From: Eledone cirrhosa
Lineage: Eukaryota
Assembly (NCBI GenBank): GCA_964016885.1
Contig: OZ024742.1
Coordinates: forward strand, 311,674,001-311,738,000
Length of the DNA: 64,000 nt
Reading direction: 5' to 3'
The first letter of the stretch is position 1, and every line of letters begins with the position of its first letter. Under the pieces are notes generated by a model. It was not told where the DNA came from, did not search any database, and saw only the letters and a list, made by a program, of their open reading frames with translations. Of this stretch, positions 8,625 through 60,520 are shown piece by piece. The position numbers and the translations under genes were made by a program.

Positions 8625-11371
<2,747 letters not shown>

Positions 11372-12057: not shown

Positions 12058-13235
12058 TGTTTTGCATCGGGTCACTTTGTGGCTCAATGAAGAATTAATA
12101 AATTAAATAATCAGAGCTATATATCATAAAACATGTCCATAGAATCACCAGATAAAATATATACCGTTTCCTCTCCCAATTAGCATAATTAACCATATAA
12201 AAAATCAATTAGACCAAGCTATAAAAATAAAGGCTCCTATGAAGAAATCTCCGACAAATAACCGAAAGCAGCCCCTTCGCGGCGGCTACGACGGATCATT
12301 TATCGAATATTTCGACAGCATGTATGAATCGACCTGATATACAGTCAACTACACAGAATTAGGTGTAAAATAAACTAGAAGAAAAGGGTACATATTTAAT
12401 TACCTCTACCATGGTTTCATCCGCATTTTAAGACATGCGATAACATTGGATATCTAGAGCTTCGGATTCTTCAGGAAGTTAGCTCAAATTTAGACAATTA
12501 ATTTTCCAAAGTGATCGCGCCAAGAATACATTCAAAAATGGCTAAGAATCGTGACGTGAAGCGGTCAAGTTAGAAAGGATGTGATTAGTTGCTTACGGCT
12601 GGTAGGCTTTTTGCTAGAAAGCGCAGCCCAATACAGCCAAAATTGTATCTCAACCTAACGGGAGATTATTACATATATAATAATCTCCCGTTAGGTTGAG
12701 ATACAATTTTGAGATACAATTTTGGCTGTATTGGGCTGCGCTTTCTAGCAAAAAACCTACCAGCCGTAAGCAACTAATCACATCCTTTCTAACTTGACCG
12801 CTTCACGTCACGATTCTTAGCCATTTTTGAATGTATTCTTGGCGCGATCACTTTGGAAAATTAATTGTCTAAATTTGAGCTAACTTCCTGAAGAATCCGA
12901 AGCTCTAGATATCCAATGTTATCGGATGTCTTAAAATGCGGATGAAACCATGGTAGAGGTAATTAAATATGTACCCTTTTCTTCTAGTATATTTTACACC
13001 TAATTCTGTGTAGTTGACTGTATATCTGGTCGATTCATACATGCTGTCGAAATATTCGATAAATGATCCGTCGTAGCCGCCGCGAAGGGGCTGCTTTCGG
13101 TTATTTGTCGGAGATTTCATCATAGGAGCCTTTATTCTTATAGCTTGGTCTAATTGATTTTTTATATGGTTAATTATGCTAATTGGGAGAGGAAACGGTA
13201 TATATTTTATCTGGTGATTCTATGGACATGTTTTA

Positions 13236-13240
<5 letters not shown>
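12058..13240. mobile_element. ~1.1-kb fold-back PLE-end insertion with HHR (12883-12960 +; mirror copy ~12401-12480 -)
   Basis: ~550-bp near-perfect arms centred near 12677; ACTTC-CTGAAGA-ATCCG..CGGAT-GAAA-CCATGG-TA-GAGGT. Confidence 0.8.
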
Positions 13241-13279
<39 letters not shown>

Positions 13280-16962: not shown

Positions 16963-17143
16963 CACACATACACACACACACTCATATATATATACATGAA
17001 AAAATTCAGGACCCCAACGGCTGGGCTCAGGCCGTTTCAACAGCTAGATCCGAACACTGAATTGTTTCATATTACCCACTCTACTACCCCAAGTATCTAG
17101 TACTCTGGTGAGAAATCGTCTAACTGGTTTATACCGCTGCCAT

Positions 17144-17235
<92 letters not shown>

Positions 17236-21011: not shown

Positions 21012-22223
<1,212 letters not shown>

Positions 22224-24106: not shown

Positions 24107-24181
<75 letters not shown>

Positions 24182-24422
24182 AACGAGTAGGACCCCGACG
24201 GCTGAGCTCAAGCCGTTTCGACGGCTAATTCTGGAGTCCAGAATTAGCCGTCGAAACGGCTCGAGCTCAGCCGTCGGGGTCCTACTCGTTCCTATTACCC
24301 ACTCTACTACCCTAAGTATTGAGTACTTTGGTGCGTTATGGTCCATCTGGTTCCTTACCACATTTCCTTCGTTATATATATAGATATATATATATATGTG
24401 TCAATCAATTTCTAGTTGATAT
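23484..24422 (-). mobile_element. Fold-back element with degenerate HHR, interrupted by a younger insertion
   Basis: Arms at 23680-23892 and 23900-24113; TGATGA-ACATC..GATGGT-GAAA-TATA-TT; the outer arm segment resumes at 24397-24422. Confidence 0.6.
24179..24373 (+). mobile_element. Mini fold-back of the family-B pLTR
   Basis: Direct arm AGTCCAGAATTAGCCG...CATTTCCTTCG matches 38991-39127; inverted arm at 24179-24235. Confidence 0.85.
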
Positions 24423-34377: not shown

Positions 34378-34446
<69 letters not shown>

Positions 34447-35674
34447 GGAACCAGTAAGACCCCGAAAGCTGAGCTCAAGCCGTTTCGACGGCTAATTCTG
34501 GACTAAATGAAAATTTATCCTGGTATTTAAATAGCCGATCTTCTCAAGGGGTAATTCCATATATGGTCAAAGTGATTGTCAAAAATCAGTAGTAATTCTG
34601 TGGTTGCAAATTAGTAGGGGAGATGGTGGCTAAACCTGCCAGTAGGAGAAAGAGGGGAGGGGTGGAGTAGACCCAATCAAGCGTTGGTAGTGCCAGCTAC
34701 AGCTGGGCATGAGGTCAAAGAAGATACAGGGGAGGGGGAGGGGGAGGAAGTCGGAACGGTAGGTAGAACAAAGAGGGGTAGAAATAGGAAAGAAAAAATA
34801 CTGAGAGTGAAGAAAAGCAAATAAGTGTAAAGAAAAAAGTAAAGTAAATTAAATTCTACGACCTAGGTGTCAGGCTATTGTTAGGCGAGAATAAAATAAA
34901 GAAAGAAAGAAAGAAGTAAAGAAATAAATAAATAAATAAATAAGGAAATAAGTAAAAGAACTAGGTGGGACGAAAAAGGCAAGGACCCTTTTAAGAGGTA
35001 TAAGTACGTAAATGATACGGTGACGGGTCAACAAAAGGGGCCAAAATACTAAAGAGACTACCACGAAATAAACAATAAAGGTTTCCATCCCGGGCCAGCA
35101 ACGACCCAGTGCAGCAAAGTGAACTTGTACGAGATAATAATTCTGAGTCCCGAGAAAAATATATACTAATGCTAACTCTAAAAGATCTAAAACAAGCTAC
35201 ATGAAAGTTCGTACGAAATAAAGGTAGAATACGGAGAAATAAATTCAGAATCCACCCCGCCCAGAAGAAAAGCGAAGCAAGAAATACTGAAACGAAAAAA
35301 TAAGGCATAAGTGCCACTAAGAAATATAGAGGGCACAGAGAATAGTGGGAGCGGTCGGAAAAAGGGGGCAAGTATCCGGGGTCTAAGCCAACTGCTATAA
35401 AGGGCGGAGTCCGCCAAATCTATCATAGACTAGGGGAGGGGGTGGTCCAGTATTAGCCGTCGAAACGGCTTGAGCTCAGCTGTCGGGGTCTTACTGGTTC
35501 CTATTACCCACTCTACTACCTCAAGTATTGAGTACTTTGGTGCGTTATGGTCCACCTGGTTCCTTACCACATTTCTTTCCTTATCTAGCTCCTACTCCCG
35601 TAGTAGAGCACTTTCCGACCCTACCACGCCGTATCCAGACTTTTCCGCTAAGCTCAATTCATTTCACCCGCACC

Positions 35675-37840
35675 ATGCGAAAACACAACATTGACTTCTC
35701 TACCAAGAACATCCCAATCCCACCGAAAAAACTTTACCTTCGGATGCTCACGCAAAAAATTGATCTATTTGCGAAAAGACTTAGATGGAGAACTTTTTTC
35801 TATGACAGATATTGCGACAACCAAGACTTCGGCACCAAGGAGAGATTCGGATTTATTACCTACAAATCTCCGCCCCTGAACCCCTTGCTCGCACCCTTCG
35901 AGAATGACCTCTTCCAACTGGTCAAGAACATTAAATTTAAAACCAGACACAACCAATTCCTACAAAAACTCCGTAGCAACTTAACAGAGTATGATAACAC
36001 AAATGACATCATGGTGCATTCGGATAAAACTGGGAACCTATACTTTGTCAACCCTGACAGATACCACACACTGATCAGGAGCAGCCTAAACTCCACCTAT
36101 AAAAAGGCCAACCACTCTTGCATCGAGGACATAAATCGAGATGGACAACAAATCACCTCCAGCCTCGGGGTCGCCGACCGCACGGAACCTCTAGACCCAC
36201 GGACACCATACTTCACACTGAAGGACCATAAATCCGATTTTGACCGTAAACCCTCTATCAGGCTTATTAACCCAACGAAGTCCGACATAGGGAGAATCAG
36301 CAAAAAAATCCTAGACCACGTGATACCAAAAGTCAAGCAACACACCCGACTTAGCCTATGGATCAACACCCAGGAAGTAATCTCCTGGTTCAGCAATATG
36401 GAGGATAAACGAGAAACTAAATTCATACAGTTCGACATAGAGAGCTACTATGCTTCAATCACCTTACCGCTACTTACTGCCGCCTTGGACTTCGCCGAAA
36501 CACTCGTGCCCATCACCGACCAGGAAAGAAAAATCATCCTCCACGCCAGGAAGACAGTCTTACTCTTTGACGACTCTAAATGGATAAAAAGAGCTCCCGA
36601 CTCACCCTTCGACGTCAGCATGGGCGCCACGGATTTGGCGGAGGTCACTGATCTTATAGGATTATTCCTAATAGCCAAACTCACTGATATGTTTCCTGCA
36701 TTCGGTGGTGGATTGTACCGTGATGATGGGCTCCTTACCCTTAAAGGGTATAACCCCAGTAGTACAGATCGGGTCCGGAAACAATTAATCAGATTCTTCC
36801 GCGACTGGGGATTTAAAATAACCCTACAAACGTCACTGACCCGAGTAAACTTCCTGGACGTAACCCTCGACCTCGAAAACGACCTGTACTACCCATACAG
36901 GAAACCTAATGACAATCTGCACTACATCCACCGCCGATCAAACCATCCTAGGAACATCACAAACAACCTGGTCAAAAACATCTCCCTCCGCATATCCCGT
37001 TTGTCAGCTAATGAGCGGATATTCGATGAACATGCGCCTTATTACAACCAGGCCCTCAAGCGGAGTGGTTTCCGGGAGGAAATATCCTACTGTCCAGCCC
37101 CCATTAGCGGAACCAGCAGGAGACACCACCGCTCACGCAATGTAACATGGTTCAATCCTCCCCACAACGCAGAGGTGACTACTCCCATCGGGAAACTATT
37201 CTTTAGGCTCATTGAAAAACACTTCCCATTACAACACCGCTACCACAACATAATTAACAAAAATACCATCAAACTCTCTTACAGCACTACACCAAACTTC
37301 GCACAAAACATCGTCTCCTCTAACAACAAAAAACTCAACCCCGATGGCAGAAATAACCTAAATAGCAGTGGAGAACCGACCAGGAGGTGTAACTGCCCGG
37401 ATAGATCTATTTGCCCACTCGACAATAGATGCAGAGACCGTAATGTGATCTACCAGTGCAACGTGAGGACGGATACCTCCAACAAAGCCTATATAGGACT
37501 TACCGCATGTGACTTCAAGACCCGGCTATACCAACATAGACATACCTTCCGAAACCCGGCCCGGCGTCACGCCACTACACTTTCGGGCCACATATGGGAC
37601 CTCAAGGACAACAACATCACCTATGATCTCACTTGGAGATTACTGTCCAGAGCCAATTCTTACACGGGAGGACGCCGTCCGTGCAATTTATGCTCGGAGG
37701 AAACTTTACAAATGCTGTTTTCGACGGACCAACTCCTAAACAAGAAAGATGAACTGGTTACTGCATGTAAACATAGATTGCGTAGGACTTACCTCGCCCT
37801 CAAACCCCATAATGACCCGGGGGGGGGGGGGGTAGACTAG
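35675..37840 (+). CDS. PLE reverse transcriptase / GIY-YIG endonuclease (~721 aa)
   Basis: CACCATG start (MRKHNIDFSTKNIP, matching the MQKQHLNISTKNIP start at 54060); SDKTGN, FIQFDIESYY, DVSMGA, GLYRDDGL, NFLDVT; CxCx5Cx5C linker; VIY..YIGLT..R..QH; terminal CxxC..CKH. Confidence 0.92.
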   Translation: MRKHNIDFSTKNIPIPPKKLYLRMLTQKIDLFAKRLRWRTFFYDRYCDNQDFGTKERFGFITYKSPPLNPLLAPFENDLFQLVKNIKFKTRHNQFLQKLRSNLTEYDNTNDIMVHSDKTGNLYFVNPDRYHTLIRSSLNSTYKKANHSCIEDINRDGQQITSSLGVADRTEPLDPRTPYFTLKDHKSDFDRKPSIRLINPTKSDIGRISKKILDHVIPKVKQHTRLSLWINTQEVISWFSNMEDKRETKFIQFDIESYYASITLPLLTAALDFAETLVPITDQERKIILHARKTVLLFDDSKWIKRAPDSPFDVSMGATDLAEVTDLIGLFLIAKLTDMFPAFGGGLYRDDGLLTLKGYNPSSTDRVRKQLIRFFRDWGFKITLQTSLTRVNFLDVTLDLENDLYYPYRKPNDNLHYIHRRSNHPRNITNNLVKNISLRISRLSANERIFDEHAPYYNQALKRSGFREEISYCPAPISGTSRRHHRSRNVTWFNPPHNAEVTTPIGKLFFRLIEKHFPLQHRYHNIINKNTIKLSYSTTPNFAQNIVSSNNKKLNPDGRNNLNSSGEPTRRCNCPDRSICPLDNRCRDRNVIYQCNVRTDTSNKAYIGLTACDFKTRLYQHRHTFRNPARRHATTLSGHIWDLKDNNITYDLTWRLLSRANSYTGGRRPCNLCSEETLQMLFSTDQLLNKKDELVTACKHRLRRTYLALKPHNDPGGGGVD

Positions 37841-38942
37841 GGCTATAACACCCCACTTGCCGATTTTGCAATGGGTAACCCCTGCTTGCCAAGGATGACG
37901 TAAGATCTTCTTTGTATTCTTTTATCGCTTCCTTTATTTCCTTCCCCCCTCTCTCCTTTGTCCTTCTACCCCAGCTCTTCTCCTTTGTCGGCGTCTTTTC
38001 TCGCCCACCCGAGGCTGCCCTTTGGCCCCATGTAGCCTTAGTACCCCCACCACCCCCTCCCCTAGTCTATGATAGATTTGGCGGACTCCGCCCTTTATAG
38101 CAGTTGGCTTAGACCCCGGATACTTGCCCCCTTTTTCCGACCGCTCCCACTATTCTCTGTGCCTTCTATATTTCTTAGTGGCACTTATGCCTTATTTTTT
38201 CGTTTCAGTATTTCTTGCTTCGCTTTTCTTCTGGGCGGGGTGGATTCTGAATTTATTTCTCCGTATTCTACCTTTATTTCGTACGAACTTTCATGTAGCT
38301 TGTTTTAGATCTTTTAGAGTTAGCATTAGTATATATTTTTCTCGGGACTCAGAATTATTATCTCGTACAAGTTCACTTTACTGCACTGGGTCGTTGCTGG
38401 CCCGGGATGGAAACCTTTATTGTTTATTTCGTGGTAGTCTCTTTAGTATTTTGGCCCCTTTTGTTGACCCGTCACCGTATCATTTACGTACTTATACCTC
38501 TTAAAAGGGTCCTTGCCTTTTTCGTCCCACCTAGTTCTTTTACTTATTTCCTTATTTATTTATTTATTTATTTCTTTACTTCTTTCTTTCTTTCTTTATT
38601 TTATTCTCGCCTAACAATAGCCTGACACCTAGGTCGTAGAATTTAATTTACTTTACTTTTTTCTTTACACTTATTTGCTTTTCTTCACTCTCAGTATTTT
38701 TTCTTTCCTATTTCTACCCCTCTTTGTTCTACCTACCGTTCCGACTTCCTCCCCCTCCCCCTCCCCTGTATCTTCTTTGCCATCATGCCCAGCTGTAGCT
38801 GGCACTACCAACGCTTGATTGGGTCTACTCCACCCCTCCCCTCTTTCTCCTACTGGCAGGTTTAGCCACCATCTCCCCTACTAATTTGCAACCACAGAAT
38901 TACTACTGATTTTTGACAATCACTTTGACCATATATGGAATT

Positions 38943-39036
38943 ACCCCTTGAGAAGATCGGCTATTTAAATACCAGGATAAATTTTCATTTAGTCCAGAAT
39001 TAGCCGTCGAAACGGCTTGAGCTCAGCTGTCGGGGT
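38943..39036 (+). ncRNA. Type I hammerhead ribozyme, U3:A8 core variant
   Basis: ACCCC-TTGAGAA-GA(T)CGGCTA-loop-TAGCCGTC-GAAA-CGGC-ttgagctca-GCTG-TC-GGGGT; copies at 59025-59118(+) and 34459-34552(-). Confidence 0.75.
38962..38995 (+). promoter_or_regulatory. Candidate Pol II core promoter (TATA-like + Inr) inside HHR stem II
   Basis: TATTTAAATA at 38962 and TTAGT with its A at 38991 (29 nt apart); two insertions begin at that A or the next base. Confidence 0.45.
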
Positions 39037-39127
39037 CTTACTGGTTCCTATTACCCACTCTACTACCTCAAGTATTGAGTACTTTGGTGCGTTATGGTCC
39101 ACCTGGTTCCTTACCACATTTCTTTCG

Positions 39128-39160
<33 letters not shown>

Positions 39161-39787: not shown

Positions 39788-40009
39788 AAACCAGGTGGAC
39801 CATAACCCACCAGAGTACTAGATACTTGGGGTAGTAGAGTGGGTAATATGAAAAGATTCAGGACCCCGACGGCTGAGCTCCATCTAGCTGTCGAAACGGC
39901 CGGAGCTCAGCCGTCGGGGTCCTGAATCTTTTCATATTACCCACTCTACTACCCCAAGTATCGAGTACTCTGGTGGGTTATGGGTCACCTGGTTTTTTAC
40001 CACACCCTA

Positions 40010-40012
<3 letters not shown>
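39788..40012 (+). mobile_element. Mini fold-back of a family-B sister subfamily (also 16997-17147; tail only at 8257-8346)
   Basis: TAGCTGTCGAAACGGCCGGAGCTCAGCCGTCGGGGTC plus the ATTACCCACTCTACTACC tail; palindromic. Confidence 0.75.
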
Positions 40013-40178: not shown

Positions 40179-42943
<2,765 letters not shown>

Positions 42944-42964
42944 ATATATATATATATATATATA

Positions 42965-45900
42965 TTTTTTTTCCCCCTATTCTTTGCATTATTCATTGAT
43001 TTATTTACTGTAATTTTTTTCAGCTTTTGAATTTTTGTTTATGTTTTTTCCATGATATCCTGTGTTCATCTCTGATTACGATTTTTTTGTTTTTTGTCCC
43101 TGCGTTCAAGTTGAATACTTTCCTCTCACGATATATTTTTTTGTTATTTTTTTGTTTTTTTGTTTGATTTTCCCTCCTCCGTCTCTGCTCACCCCTTCGC
43201 CCTTACCCCTTCGTCCCCCCAAAAAATCACACCCTTCCCTTCGCCTCTCTCTCCACCCTGCTTTTACTCCACGCCCACCATGCCAAGCCTGAGATCCTTT
43301 CTCCACCAACTCCACACCCGCCTCAAACTTTTCCTCACCCACTCCTCCCACCCTGCTATCTCCCTTCGGCCCTCAATCTCTCCTACCTTCTCTTCGCCAA
43401 AACCCGGCATTCCAACCACATCCATTTGCTCAGCCGCTGCCTCACCTCCACCTCATCCCCCTTGGCTTCCGACTACACTTCCACACCTCCCCCTCCGCTT
43501 CCCCTCCACCCAACGGATCCTCACCCGATCCTCGCGCCTCCTAATGCGCAACTCCATCCGCTCCTCCCTCTCCACCATCTGCAACCTTGACCACAAACTC
43601 ACCCCACCCTCCTCCACCTTAACTCCGCATGCCAGCCCTTCCTCGCCCACTCTATCTTCCCTTTCATCCAAAACCTCAACCACGACCTCTTCTCCTTCCT
43701 CACCTCCACCAAAGCCCTTAAGCTACACCCCGCCCCATCCCCGTGACCATCATCTTGGACGCCGGCACCAGGGCAATTTAGCACCCTGGACACGTTCGTT
43801 GACGCCTGCCGTAGCGCAGTAAATCGCTTCGACTTCCGCCACCGTTCCAAACGGAATAACATCTCACGGGGCGAACTCCTCGCTCTCCGCTCCCTCCGTA
43901 GCCGAGATGACATCGTCATCAAACCGGCGGACAAAGGAGGCGCCGTGGTGGTATGGCGCGCTGACCGCTACACGGCTGAAGCTCTCAGGCAGCTCCGTAA
44001 TCCCCTCTTCTACCGCCCTCTACCCTCTGACCCCACACCCCTCTATCAACAACAAGTTTCCTCCACTATCAAACACCTTGTCTCCTCCTCCCTCCTCCCT
44101 CCCATCGCTTCCCACCTCATCGTCCGCACCCCCGCACCCCTACTATCTACTTCCTCCCCAAACTCCACAAACCTGACAACCCCAGCCGCCCCATCGTCTC
44201 TGCTTGCAACTGCACCACTGAACACATCTCCGCCTTTCTTGACTCCATCCTCGCCCCCCTCGTCACCACCCTCCCCTCTCACATCTCCGACACCAACCAC
44301 GCCCTTCGCCTGTTCGACTCCTTCACTTTCCCACCCGACCCACATCCCCTCCTCTTCGCCCTAGATATCCAGTCCCTCTATACTGTCATCCCCCACGCCG
44401 ACGGCCTTCGTGCCCTCCGGCACTACCTCGACCTTCGCCCCTCCAACCCCCCCCCCCCCCCCATCACCCCCACACCCACCCTCCAAGCTGGTCCTCACCC
44501 TCAACTGCTTCTCCTTCTCGGGTGAGTTTTACCAACAGGTCACTGGGGTAGCCATGGACTCAAGAATGGGCCCAAACTATGCCAACCTTTTCGTTGGCCA
44601 TGTTGAGGCCCAAATCTTTGCCCAGTACACCGGCCCCACGCCCGAACTGTACGGTCGTTACATCGACGACTGTATTGGAGCCACGACCCTCACCCGAGAA
44701 CAGCTCGACTCCTTTCTCTCCTTCTTCTGCGCCTTCCACCCCACCCCCCACTTCACCACATCTATCTCCACCACCCACGTCCACTTCTTAGACATCTCCA
44801 TCGCCATCGACTCCTCCCACCGCTCCCTCATCACCTCCGCCTTCTTCAAACCCACCGACTCCCACTCCTACCTCGACTTCACCTCCTCCCACCCCACACA
44901 CACTAAACACTCTATTCCCTACTCCCAACTCCTCCGGATCCGCAGCCCCTGCAGCCGAGATGCTGATTTTGAGTCCCAAACCCTTTCCCTAGTCAGCCAT
45001 TTCATCCGGCGAGGTTACACCCCCTCTCCCTCGTCCACACCGCCTTCACTCGCGCCCGTGCTGTCCACCGCTCCACCGCTCTCACCCCACGCCACCGCAC
45101 ACCCACCCACCGTCTTCCCTTCCCTCTCACCTACCACCCTTCCACCTTACCCCTCCACCGCACCATCCTCCGCCTCTTCCGACGCCTCCAGTCCGACCCC
45201 CCATTTCCTCTTTCTTCCCATCCCCACCCCTCCCCTCCTTCAAACGCGCACGCAATCTCCGCACCCTCCTCGTCCACAGCTCCCTATCCCCCAATCACGC
45301 TCCCCCCGGTTCACTTCCCTGCTCCAGGCCTCGTTGCCACACCTGCCCCCACATCATCAACACCACCACCTTCCATGGTCCCAATGGCCACTCTCTCTCT
45401 GTCCGACACGCCTTCCGCTGCACCTCCTCCAACCTAGTCTATGGACTTCGCTGCAACCTACGTCGGACAGACTGGACGTCGCCTGGCGGACCGTTTCACG
45501 GAACACCTCCGGGATATTCGCCTCGGCGGGAGTTCCCCGATCGCTCGCCACTTTCGCTCCCCTGGACACTCCGCCCACCACCTCACAGTCTGTGGTCTAC
45601 TCCAATGCCATGGTACACCCGCGACCCGCCTCACGGTCGAACAACGCACCATTTTCACCCCCCCCCCCCTGTCTGAACTCCCCACCCCTATTCCTTTAGC
45701 CTTCGACCGGCCAGCTTCCCCCCACATTCCCCACTAACACCCCTAACACACTTCCCCTTTCACCGCCCCACCCCCTTCGCCCATCCCACAACTAACAATA
45801 CTAACACCCCCTTCCCTTTATCACACTATCCACACCCCCGCTTTCCACCCTTTCCCCACCACACGGAATACTAACACCCACTAACACCTCCTTTACCACA

Positions 45901-56991: not shown

Positions 56992-59209
56992 AAAACCATC
57001 CTAGGAACATCACAAACAACCTGGTCAAAAACATCTCCCTCCGCATATCCCGTTTGTCAGCTAATGAGCGGATATTCGATGAACATGCGCCTTATTACAA
57101 CCAGGCCCTCAAGCGGAGTGGTTTCCGGGAGGAAATATCCTACTGTCCAGCTCCCATTAGCGGAACCAGCAGGAGACACCGCCGCTCACGCAATGTAACA
57201 TGGTTCAATCCTCCCCACAACGCAGAGGTGACAACTCCCATCGGGAAACTATTCTTTAGGCTCATTGAAAAACACTTCCCATTACAACACCGCTACCACA
57301 ACATAATTAACAAAAATACCATCAAACTCTCTTACAGCACTACACCAAACTTCGCACAAAACATCGTCTCCTCTAACAACAAAAAACTCAACCCCGATGG
57401 CAGAAATAACCTAAATAGCAGTGGAGAACCGACCAGGAGGTGTAACTGCCCGGATAGATCTATTTGCCCACTCGACAATAGATGCAGAGACCGTAATGTG
57501 ATCTACCAGTGCAACGTGAGGACGGATACCTCCAACAAAGCCTATATAGGACTTACCGCATGTGACTTCAAGACCCGGCTATACCAACATAGACATACCT
57601 TCCGAAACCCGGCCCGGCGTCACGCCACTACACTTTCGGGCCACATATGGGACCTCAAGGACAACAACATCACCTATGATCTCACTTGGAGATTACTGTC
57701 CAGAGCCAATTCTTACACGGGAGGACGCCGTCCGTGCAATTTATGCTCGGAGGAAACTTTACAAATGCTGTTTTCGACGGACCAACTCCTAAACAAGAAA
57801 GATGAACTGGTTACTGCATGTAAACATAGATTGCGTAGGACTTACCTCGCCCTCAAACCCCATAATGACCGGGGGGGGGGGGGTAGACTAGGGCTATAAC
57901 ACCCCACTTGCCGATTTTGCAATGGGTAACCCCTGCTTGCCAAGGGAGACGTAAGATCTTCTTTGTATTCTTTTATCGCTTCCTTTATTTCCTTCCTTCC
58001 CCCCTCTCTCCTTAGTCCTTCTACCCCAGCTCTTCTCCTTTGTCGGCGTCTTTTCTCGCCCACCCGAGGCTGCCCTTTGGCCCCTTGTAGCCTTAGTACC
58101 CCCACCCCCTCCCCTAGTCTAGGATAGATTTGGCGGACTCCGCCCTTTATAGCAGTTGGTTTAGACCCCGGATACTTGTCCCCTTTTTCCGACCGCTCCC
58201 ACTATTCTCTGTGCCCTCTATATTTCTTAGTGGCACTTATGCCTTATTTTTTCGTTTCAGTATTTCTTTCTTCGCTTTTCTTTTGGGCGGGGTGGATTCT
58301 GAATTTATTCTTCCGTATTCTACCTTTACTTCGTACGAACTTTCATGTAGCTTGTTTTAGATCTTTTAGAGTTAGCATTAGTATATATTTTTCTCGGGAC
58401 TCAGAATTATTATCTCGTATTAGTTCACTTTGCTGCACTGGGTGGTTGCCGGAATTGTGCCCGGGATGGAAACCTTTATTGTTTATTTCGTGGTAGTCTC
58501 TTTAGTATTTTGGTCCCTTTTGTTGACCCGTCACCGTATCATTTACGTACTTATACCTCTTAAAAGAGTCCTCGCCTATTCCGTCCCACCTAGTTCTTTT
58601 ACTTATTTCGTTATTTCTTTATTTCTTTCTTTACTTCTTTCTTTCTTTATTTATTTATTTATTCTAGACTAACAATAGCTAGAGACCTAGGTCGTAGAAT
58701 TTAATTTACTTTACTTTTTTCTTTACACTCATTTGTTTTTCTTTACACTTATTTGCTTTTCTTCACTCTCAGTATTTTTTCTTTCCTATATATTTCTACC
58801 CCCCATTGTTCTACCTACCGTTCCGCTTCCTCCCCCTCCCCCTCCCCTGTATCTTCTTTGACCTCATGCCCAGCTGTAGCTGGCACTACAAACGCTTGAT
58901 TGGGGCTACTCCACCCCCTCCCCTCTTTCTCCTACTGGCAGGTTTAGCCACCATCTCCCCTACTAATTTGCAACCACAGAATTACTACTGATTTTTGACA
59001 ATCACTTTGACCATATATGGAATTACCCCTTGAGAAGATCGGCTATTTAAATACCAGGATAAATTTTCATTTAGTCCAGAATTAGCCGTCGAAACGGCTT
59101 GAGCTCAGCTGTCGGGGTCTTACTGGTTCCTATTACCCACTCTACTACCTCAAGTATTGAGTACTTTGGTGCGTTATGGTCCACCTGGTTCCTTACCACA
59201 TTTCCTTCG

Positions 59210-59211
<2 letters not shown>
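56992..59211 (+). mobile_element. 5'-truncated second copy of the family-B PLE
   Basis: Nearly identical to 36940-39128; EN domain intact; HHR at 59025-59118. Confidence 0.92.

Positions 59212-60520
<1,309 letters not shown>

Follow-up and report, generated by a model that had tools for sequence, protein, structure and literature searches.

Evidence for a probable capped RNA 5' end within a hammerhead ribozyme of a Penelope-like element from Eledone cirrhosa

The role of the hammerhead ribozymes found in Penelope-like elements (PLEs) is described as unclear (PMC8557442), and both the way in which the pLTR is rebuilt and the choice between a sense and an antisense template have been left open (PMC2377424, PMC3846280). 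Comparisons made here with these and other published systems refer to excerpts of the papers cited. Hydra-clade PLEs (PMC8557442) resemble the Eledone element described below in having a short single ORF with a C-terminal endonuclease, the motifs DKT, CxCX5C, CxxC and CxH, (TA)n targets, an inverted 5'-truncated arm, a tail, and a hammerhead in the pLTR. The 26 Hydra rows of File S2 in that paper list CUGANGA cores with a loop II between 3 and 10 nt long, whereas the Eledone element has a loop of 37 nt and a U3-A8 core; no mapping of a start site for the clade was found in the excerpts of PMC8557442. Penelope of D. virilis (PMC2377424, PMC4209133) has its transcription start and an initiator in the pLTR, a TATA-less promoter, a hammerhead in the same pLTR, and partial tandems, all of which find a likeness here. 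Combining the two papers places the Penelope start at 371, an intron at 416-491, and the beginning of helix I at the end of the intron. The Penelope ribozyme is therefore wholly downstream of the start, whereas the start proposed here would cut the Eledone ribozyme in two.

Several other systems bring promoters and ribozymes, or internal priming and inverted pLTRs, together. In Pr77/L1TcRz of L1Tc (PMC3383444) one short stretch of a retroelement is likewise both promoter and self-cleaving ribozyme, but the ribozyme is HDV-like, lies wholly downstream of +1 and cuts at +1, while in Eledone a hammerhead would be split by the start, with the predicted cut 41 nt downstream. PAc, the Poseidon element of Anolis (PMC11167929), is alike in that two internal sites of reverse transcriptase (RT) initiation bound the tail and both DNA strands are cut and extended, and uncleaved RNA is its main template; it differs in that the ORF begins at stem II, and no start mapping, head-to-head joining or cap footprint was found in the excerpts of that paper. 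Pen2a_Av of Adineta vaga (PMC3846280) has predicted TATA and Inr-like motifs in the pLTR, head-to-head inverted pLTRs and junction palindromes. There, however, the promoter is a prediction only, the palindromes are attributed to self-priming on an antisense template, and no relation to a ribozyme was found in the excerpts. NbRZ1 (PMC12029980) combines a promoter and a hammerhead in one repeat, but there transcription begins upstream and the RNA is cleaved. Newt satellite 2 and a schistosome satellite are hammerhead repeats with internal promoters (cited in PMC2220036).

A literature search for a transcription start inside a hammerhead returned no report; it was weighted towards open-access papers, and the hammerhead alignments of PMC4209133 may hold long-loop precedents. 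No mention of a start inside a ribozyme was found in the portions searched of bioRxiv 10.64898/2026.07.22.740005 or PMC7229834. Overlap of promoter and ribozyme (in L1Tc) and promoters in pLTRs are already known, and what would be new here is a hammerhead split by the start. Newt satellite 2, whose start presumably lies close to the 5' edge of its ribozyme, may be a nearer precedent.

The element and its hammerhead

The window (the whole 64,000-nt stretch of Eledone cirrhosa DNA analysed here) contains a full-length PLE whose flanks are all (TA)n. It consists of an inverted, 5'-truncated arm (34444-35446, minus strand; it corresponds to 38049-39051 and carries a whole hammerhead with the putative start site, both pointing outward), a short 5' pLTR (35445-35584, plus strand), a single ORF (35675-37840, plus strand), and a 3' pLTR that includes the 3' UTR (37841-39131, plus strand). 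Its family is referred to as B, and a sister family with 154 genome matches as C; E and F are other hammerhead families. A second family B 3' pLTR with a complete hammerhead lies at 57891-59217 (plus strand), behind a 5'-truncated ORF. Tandem arrays of family B sequence are also found elsewhere in the genome, at C2:356030076-356031889 and C1:91476607-91487253, with periods of 299 nt and about 3,543 nt, and the window holds two further PLE ORFs, apparently of different clades, at 40781-42718 (minus strand) and 43747-45699 (plus strand).

The ORF encodes 721 aa from its ATG, within a frame open from 35474, and is predicted to comprise an RT together with a C-terminal GIY-YIG-type endonuclease. 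A Pfam scan of the protein itself matched no family. It is about 40% identical to many proteins of about 700 aa (2,032 hits among 7,997 candidates scored), and the best hit contains PF01541. The motifs RWK, DKT, a CxCX5C linker, CxxC and CxH (as CKH) are present, and CCHH is absent by eye. From the ORF layout, the motifs listed in PMC8557442, and the possession of a pLTR with an inverted arm and a tail at a (TA)n target, the element is assigned, on motifs and structure, to the Hydra-clade PLEs. Its unit size of about 3.5 kb, taken from the spacing of ORF-linked matches, slightly exceeds the description of the clade (about 3 kb or less). It is worth adding that the leader at 35547-35588 contains an upstream ORF of 13 codons and, directly after the tail, a pyrimidine tract ending in TAG; this is a possible splice acceptor, comparable to the 5' UTR introns of Penelope and Chlamys-3. 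The contig runs over the 5' leader had no GT..AG joint and are uninformative as to the presence of an intron.

The hammerhead motif of the 3' pLTR (38943-39036, plus strand) is of type I. Stem I (38943-38947 with 39032-39036) is followed by the core TTGAGAA (38948-38954), stem II (38955-38963 with 39001-39008), a 37-nt loop II (38964-39000), GAAA (39009-39012), and a palindromic stem III (39013-39029), with the predicted cut after C39031. Positions are numbered below from +1 = A38991; on this scale GAAA is +19 to +22 and the predicted cut follows +41. The core nucleotides, G10.1-C11.1, the three stems and an NUH site are all present, the core being the U3-A8 variant that has been described for PLEs (PMC4209133). 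The minimum-energy fold is the three-way junction of a hammerhead, although its stability is not above that of shuffles (z -0.96), and an Rfam search at the gathering threshold gave no match anywhere in the window. Across subfamilies, core position 7 may be G, T, A or C, whereas most subfamilies conserve the other core positions, which is the pattern expected for a selected ribozyme. On this anatomy the motif is a type I hammerhead of the PLE kind, and is predicted to be self-cleaving. In some subfamilies of B the core reads CUGAGAA, with C3 mismatched to A8, so that cutting is not certain. These subfamilies have still yielded many copies, and cutting may be dispensable.

A 5' edge within loop II

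The 5' ends of family B copies were mapped using a 24-mer downstream of the ribozyme, for which the 3.0-Gb genome gives 23,294 perfect matches. The first 90 loci, most of which lie within 38 Mb of the start of one contig, gave 97 direct arms. It is striking that 56 of these end at -11 to +7 and none at -12 to -79, with 31 at +8 to +54 and 10 at -80 or beyond; the negative positions near the edge are partly due to extension into palindromic junctions, and ends at '-80' reflect the divergence of subfamilies as well as true ends. Where A+1 is present, 50 of 63 arms stop no more than 4 nt upstream, while of those that pass -5, 28 of 30 also run past the TATA position, so that there is no second edge. 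In the genome as a whole, 17,544 arms hold +1 to +25 and 4,652 continue to -5. Of four runs of unspecified type, two show contig depth stepping up at bin 38992, by about 13-fold and about 18-fold, although such contigs do not mark transcription starts. The degree to which 5' ends cluster far exceeds what chance would give, and the clustered truncation points that the earlier note had proposed are borne out both by the genome-wide counts and by the mapped arms. The two insertions that it had singled out also end at this site: the direct arm of the full-length copy starts at 35445, which is +2, and overlaps its inverted arm by 2 nt, and the direct arm of the short copy at 24177-24379 starts at 24235, which is +1.

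The initiator consensus is YYA+1, and nearly all family B variants, as well as family C, keep TYAGT at the edge, with an equal distance to GAAA. Family C combines the TTAGT register with a loop that differs from that of B and is rich in G+C. Among 30 family C arms, 18 end at -1 to +10 (two of these being palindromic mis-extensions), two at -7 and -13, and five at +14 to +32, and five run through. Judged from the sequences of the two families, the edge follows the initiator-like word and not the TATA-like box or the structure of the loop.

Upstream of the edge, the TATA-like box TATTTAAATA (38962-38971, plus strand) and the A of TTAGT at 38991 are located as the earlier note had described, with a spacing of 29 nt. 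The first TA of the box belongs to the 5' strand of stem II, in which its first letters are paired. When the 54-nt stretch was shuffled 100,000 times, 0.58% of the shuffles had a loose TATA..Inr pattern at this spacing, as did 13 of 1,041 tiles of 54 nt taken from non-repeat parts of the window; since the pattern was picked post hoc, the pair of motifs is modest evidence taken alone. The core promoter of TATA plus Inr type requires a conserved TATA box about 30 nt upstream, and this was not found: the word at -29 is TATTTAAATA, TATTCAAATA, TATTTATATA, TATTCATATA, TATTCATGTA or TATTTATTTA in the subfamilies of B, and family C, with the identical edge, has TAGATTCCCG. The box is likely to be dispensable or minor, and the need for it that had been proposed is not supported by the comparison. 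A candidate for an upstream promoter element is the palindrome CCATATATGG (38929-38938, plus strand, at -62), which we take to be a CArG-box-like motif. It is kept in families B and C despite differing flanks, with other copies at 34557 and 59011. A clean DPE at +28 to +32 was looked for by eye and none was seen. Internal Pol III promoters have A and B boxes of known consensus at tRNA-like spacing; such a promoter was rejected, the only A-box-like letters being at +29, with no B box by eye, and family C having TTTT before its tail.

A second line of evidence comes from the letter that precedes +1. The genomic letter at -1 is T or C, and when the sampled junctions were parsed a single untemplated G was seen beside A+1. 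We counted genome-wide, for truncation at +1 only, two types of junction in which a non-genomic letter stands at -1, and found 47 G, 4 A and 2 C in the first (n=53), and 67 G and 5 A in the second (n=72). Within the sample, three of 12 inserts adjoining +2 also end in G. So strong a bias to G makes point mutation of a perfect junction an unfavoured source. Untemplated G at the 5' ends of L1 and SVA has been read as a reverse-transcribed cap (PMC4859970).

The start is not one base. TTTT precedes +1 in 2,400 arms, where the genome has ATTT, and T runs of up to 18 are found before +1. In the TCAGT subfamily, which has C at -1, stopped arms mostly show C, and T at -1 occurs in one of nine arms, as against 45 of 74 (p 0.009, the arms not being independent). 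The rarity of T in this subfamily indicates that part of the upstream letters is templated. Pure A-tailing by the RT was rejected as the source of the T runs on the same ground, that they are partly templated, though the long runs need slippage or tailing. A further 1,560 arms reach A-4 with a different letter before it; some of these are mutated long copies and many are palindromic joints. TCATTT at -4 is a second initiator-like word, and G precedes A-4 in nine of the first 100 matches, two of the five viewed being clean, which makes for an uncertain sign of a cap at this site.

The hard edge, the extra G and the poor fit of stalling (below) together argue for a capped transcription start inside loop II of the hammerhead, to which we give a probability of about four in five. 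The start would be a small cluster at 38987-38991 (plus strand), with the main site at A+1 (38991, in TTAGT or TCAGT) and a minor one at A-4 (38987, in TCATTT). The proposal in the earlier note that transcription starts within the ribozyme thus stands as regards a fixed, probably capped, 5' end of the template in loop II, and is modified as regards a single base. Its corollary, that an RNA beginning at +1 would hold only half a ribozyme, follows from the position of this probable 5' end: only the 3' half would be present. The 5' pLTR of the full-length copy (+2 to +140) has just this 3' half and is without the upstream promoter sequence. One side observation concerns folding: for an RNA that begins at +1, the predicted fold pairs the 3' strand of stem II, now free, with the 5' strand of stem III (39002-39017), GAAA being capped in a hairpin, which is a possible inactive fold; a shorter fragment has a different predicted fold.

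The earlier note had gone further. In its full form, the model has a TATA-plus-Inr promoter drive short RNAs from 3' pLTRs and truncated copies, these RNAs being the templates of the short head-to-head copies, or minis. Taken jointly, dependence on TATA and an origin in short RNAs are doubtful, at perhaps the upper end of what we would call unlikely. The youngest subfamily does have the box at -29, and promoter-bearing arms far outnumber ORF-linked ones (4,652 against 234), so most +1 RNAs could come from loci without an ORF. Against this, the box is altered in other subfamilies and, with an unchanged edge, in family C, as listed above, and 3' ends are set at +60 and +140 whatever follows, and are therefore uninformative on the length of the RNA. 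Minis would need no special short RNA, as RT initiation at internal sites on the 5' end of a full-length RNA would give the same product; internal initiation has been described for PAc (PMC11167929). This model and the capped start favoured here share the internal start itself.

It is considerably less probable that the 5' end at +1 was made by processing of a longer RNA, whether by a host nuclease, by splicing or trans-splicing at the acceptor-like TTTTCATTTAG, or by recapping. The letters around +1/+2 do resemble a 3' splice site, introns are known in the 5' UTRs of PLEs (PMC2377424, PMC8557442), and two thirds of the ORF-linked copies extend upstream of +1, which is compatible with processing. 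Splicing, however, would remove an AG that the copies retain and should leave a constant upstream exon or leader, and the copies have none, on which grounds a splice acceptor at +1/+2 was rejected; nor does family C have the pyrimidine tract. The extra G requires a cap or recapping, and this argues against plain processing.

Stalling or pausing of the RT on longer read-through RNAs, at stem II or at a small hairpin in loop II, is an explanation of the clustering that the earlier note had itself raised, and it fits poorly enough to be rated improbable, slightly below processing. A hairpin in loop II (about -16 to +5, with A+1 bulged) is predicted in the window copy, many ends at +2 to +7 are compatible with stalling, and in family C a helix ending at -4 is predicted, with a cost of 1.8 kcal/mol. 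But the inner hairpin is not kept across the B subfamilies or in C, and folding of family B gives no barrier ahead of +1, freeing -8 to -1 costing 0.4 kcal/mol against 4.3 kcal/mol for stem I. Travelling 3' to 5', the RT would have to pass stem I and then stems III and II to reach the loop, and the entry to stem II (+17 to +22) accounts for the ends of only 4 of the 97 direct arms. In families E and F, which are unrelated families of the same genome with a long stem II, arms ending within stem or loop II number one of 30 and one of 30, the ends being elsewhere dispersed; these controls are non-coding tandem repeats that perhaps use other enzymes, and some of the sampled loci overlap. Stalling does not predict the extra G. 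Ends made by self-cleavage were rejected: arms starting at +42/+43, just past the predicted cut, number 4 of 97, at most a weak hint of cleavage.

Head-to-head minis and long copies

The mini at 24177-24379 (plus strand) consists of an inverted arm, +60 to +3, and a direct arm, +1 to +140, which overlap by 1 nt. Three others had been described as folding just upstream of GAAA. This applies to the palindromic mini of an older B subfamily (1249-1359, given in the note as 1253-1355), whose arms are joined at +5/+7, while in the other two only one arm comes near the site: the family C mini at 39788-40012 joins +28 to +8, its direct arm starting at +8, and in the mini of family C type at 16997-17147 the inverted arm reaches TCAGT and the direct arm starts far downstream.

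The 3' ends are fixed. Inverted arms meet (TA)n at +60 (39050..39051, plus strand; 81 of 183 arms) and direct arms at +140 (39130..39131, plus strand; 71 of 183 arms), two putative RT start sites that bound the tail, +61 to +140. The inner junctions, by contrast with these fixed ends, vary widely: overlaps, losses and small inserts occur, and +1 may be reached by the direct arm, by the inverted arm or by both. Both arms carry the letters of the same subfamily in 38 of 41 minis (shuffle mean 15.6), which fits one template and equally fits subfamilies active at different times.

These features are better fitted by two target-primed cDNAs, begun at two internal sites, in the way that PAc does in vitro, and joined head to head, than by fold-back self-priming, possibly on an antisense template and with the edge as the priming or fold-back site: that model, published for the palindromes of rotifer PLEs (PMC3846280), is compatible with the palindromes common at mini junctions and with the subfamily letters common to both arms, but the longer arm is now one and now the other, minis occur in which both arms reach +1 and no loop intervenes, the extra G lies 5' of the sense strand, and both outer ends are fixed TA-matched sites, so that it is the least probable of the readings considered.

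With a capped start in loop II, the life of the element is probably as follows. RNA polymerase II would start at A38991, with some RNAs likely beginning up to 4 nt earlier. The capped RNA, with only the 3' half of the ribozyme at its 5' end, would be uncut there, and a complete ribozyme would occur only where RNA reads through a pLTR from upstream, that is, at the 3' end of a full-length RNA or in tandem copies. During insertion, the two ends of a (TA)n break would probably prime the RT at the internal sites +60 and +140, each cDNA would run off the capped 5' end, at times copying the cap as the extra G, and head-to-head joining of the two cDNAs, with a few letters lost or inserted, would produce the palindromic minis.

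Long copies fit less simply. Of 30 5' pLTRs examined among the 234 ORF-linked matches, 10 start at or downstream of the edge (six of these within +15) and 20 extend upstream of +1; seven of the 20 reach past the 1.5 kb examined, units of about 3.54 kb being found in arrays, and these ends reflect the divergence of subfamilies as well as true ends. Many long copies therefore did not arise by simple run-off of a +1 RNA, and read-through RNA, circles or template jumps may often have been their source.

We tentatively suggest, as a possibility well short of an even chance, that the start site acts as a switch for the ribozyme, allowing an LTR-like replication without LTRs. The capped 5' end would be left uncut, and the 3' end would be trimmed at +41 by the complete ribozyme there, to leave a 41-nt terminal repeat. 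The RT would start within the 5' repeat and proceed to the cap, the strong-stop cDNA being what is seen in the thousands of minis, and would then jump to the 3' repeat, rebuilding the upstream promoter and giving partial tandems. A 3' cut at the predicted position would strip the 3' repeat of its two RT start sites and leave the 41-nt terminal repeat, which would make a strong-stop jump natural. It is also conceivable that the 5' half-ribozyme of the 3' UTR base-pairs with the capped 5' end and cuts it in a two-strand format.

A start inside the ribozyme, if real, would explain how a translated, capped RNA escapes self-cleavage at its 5' end, cutting being limited to read-through copies. The transcript of a partial tandem could not then be circularised by double cutting, contrary to the proposal in PMC4209133. 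The insertions would amount to a fossil map of 5' ends that points to a capped sense template, and provide exact coordinates for tests on these relatives of telomerase.

Other hammerhead families

Four further families with hammerheads were noted. Two are retrozyme-like and, like the minis, form head-to-head insertions. Family F, at 21082-22215, has tandem units of about 485 nt whose hammerhead has a long stem II; its arms lie head to head, and it has 619 matches. Family E has units of about 591 nt, also in tandem, with a U3-A8 hammerhead and a long loop II (5,134 matches); its 5' ends are dispersed, and one copy starts 17 nt before GAAA. Non-LTR retrozymes are made of tandem units that each carry a complete hammerhead, as E and F are; the minis, which are head to head and are without the 5' half, differ from them in this. 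A third family (12118-13244, L090 type) has hammerheads with a long and fast-changing loop II in inverted arms, and three relatives have not retained its TATA-like letters. At 9462-10883 there are copies, both tandem and inverted, of a family whose CUGAUGA hammerhead has a short loop.
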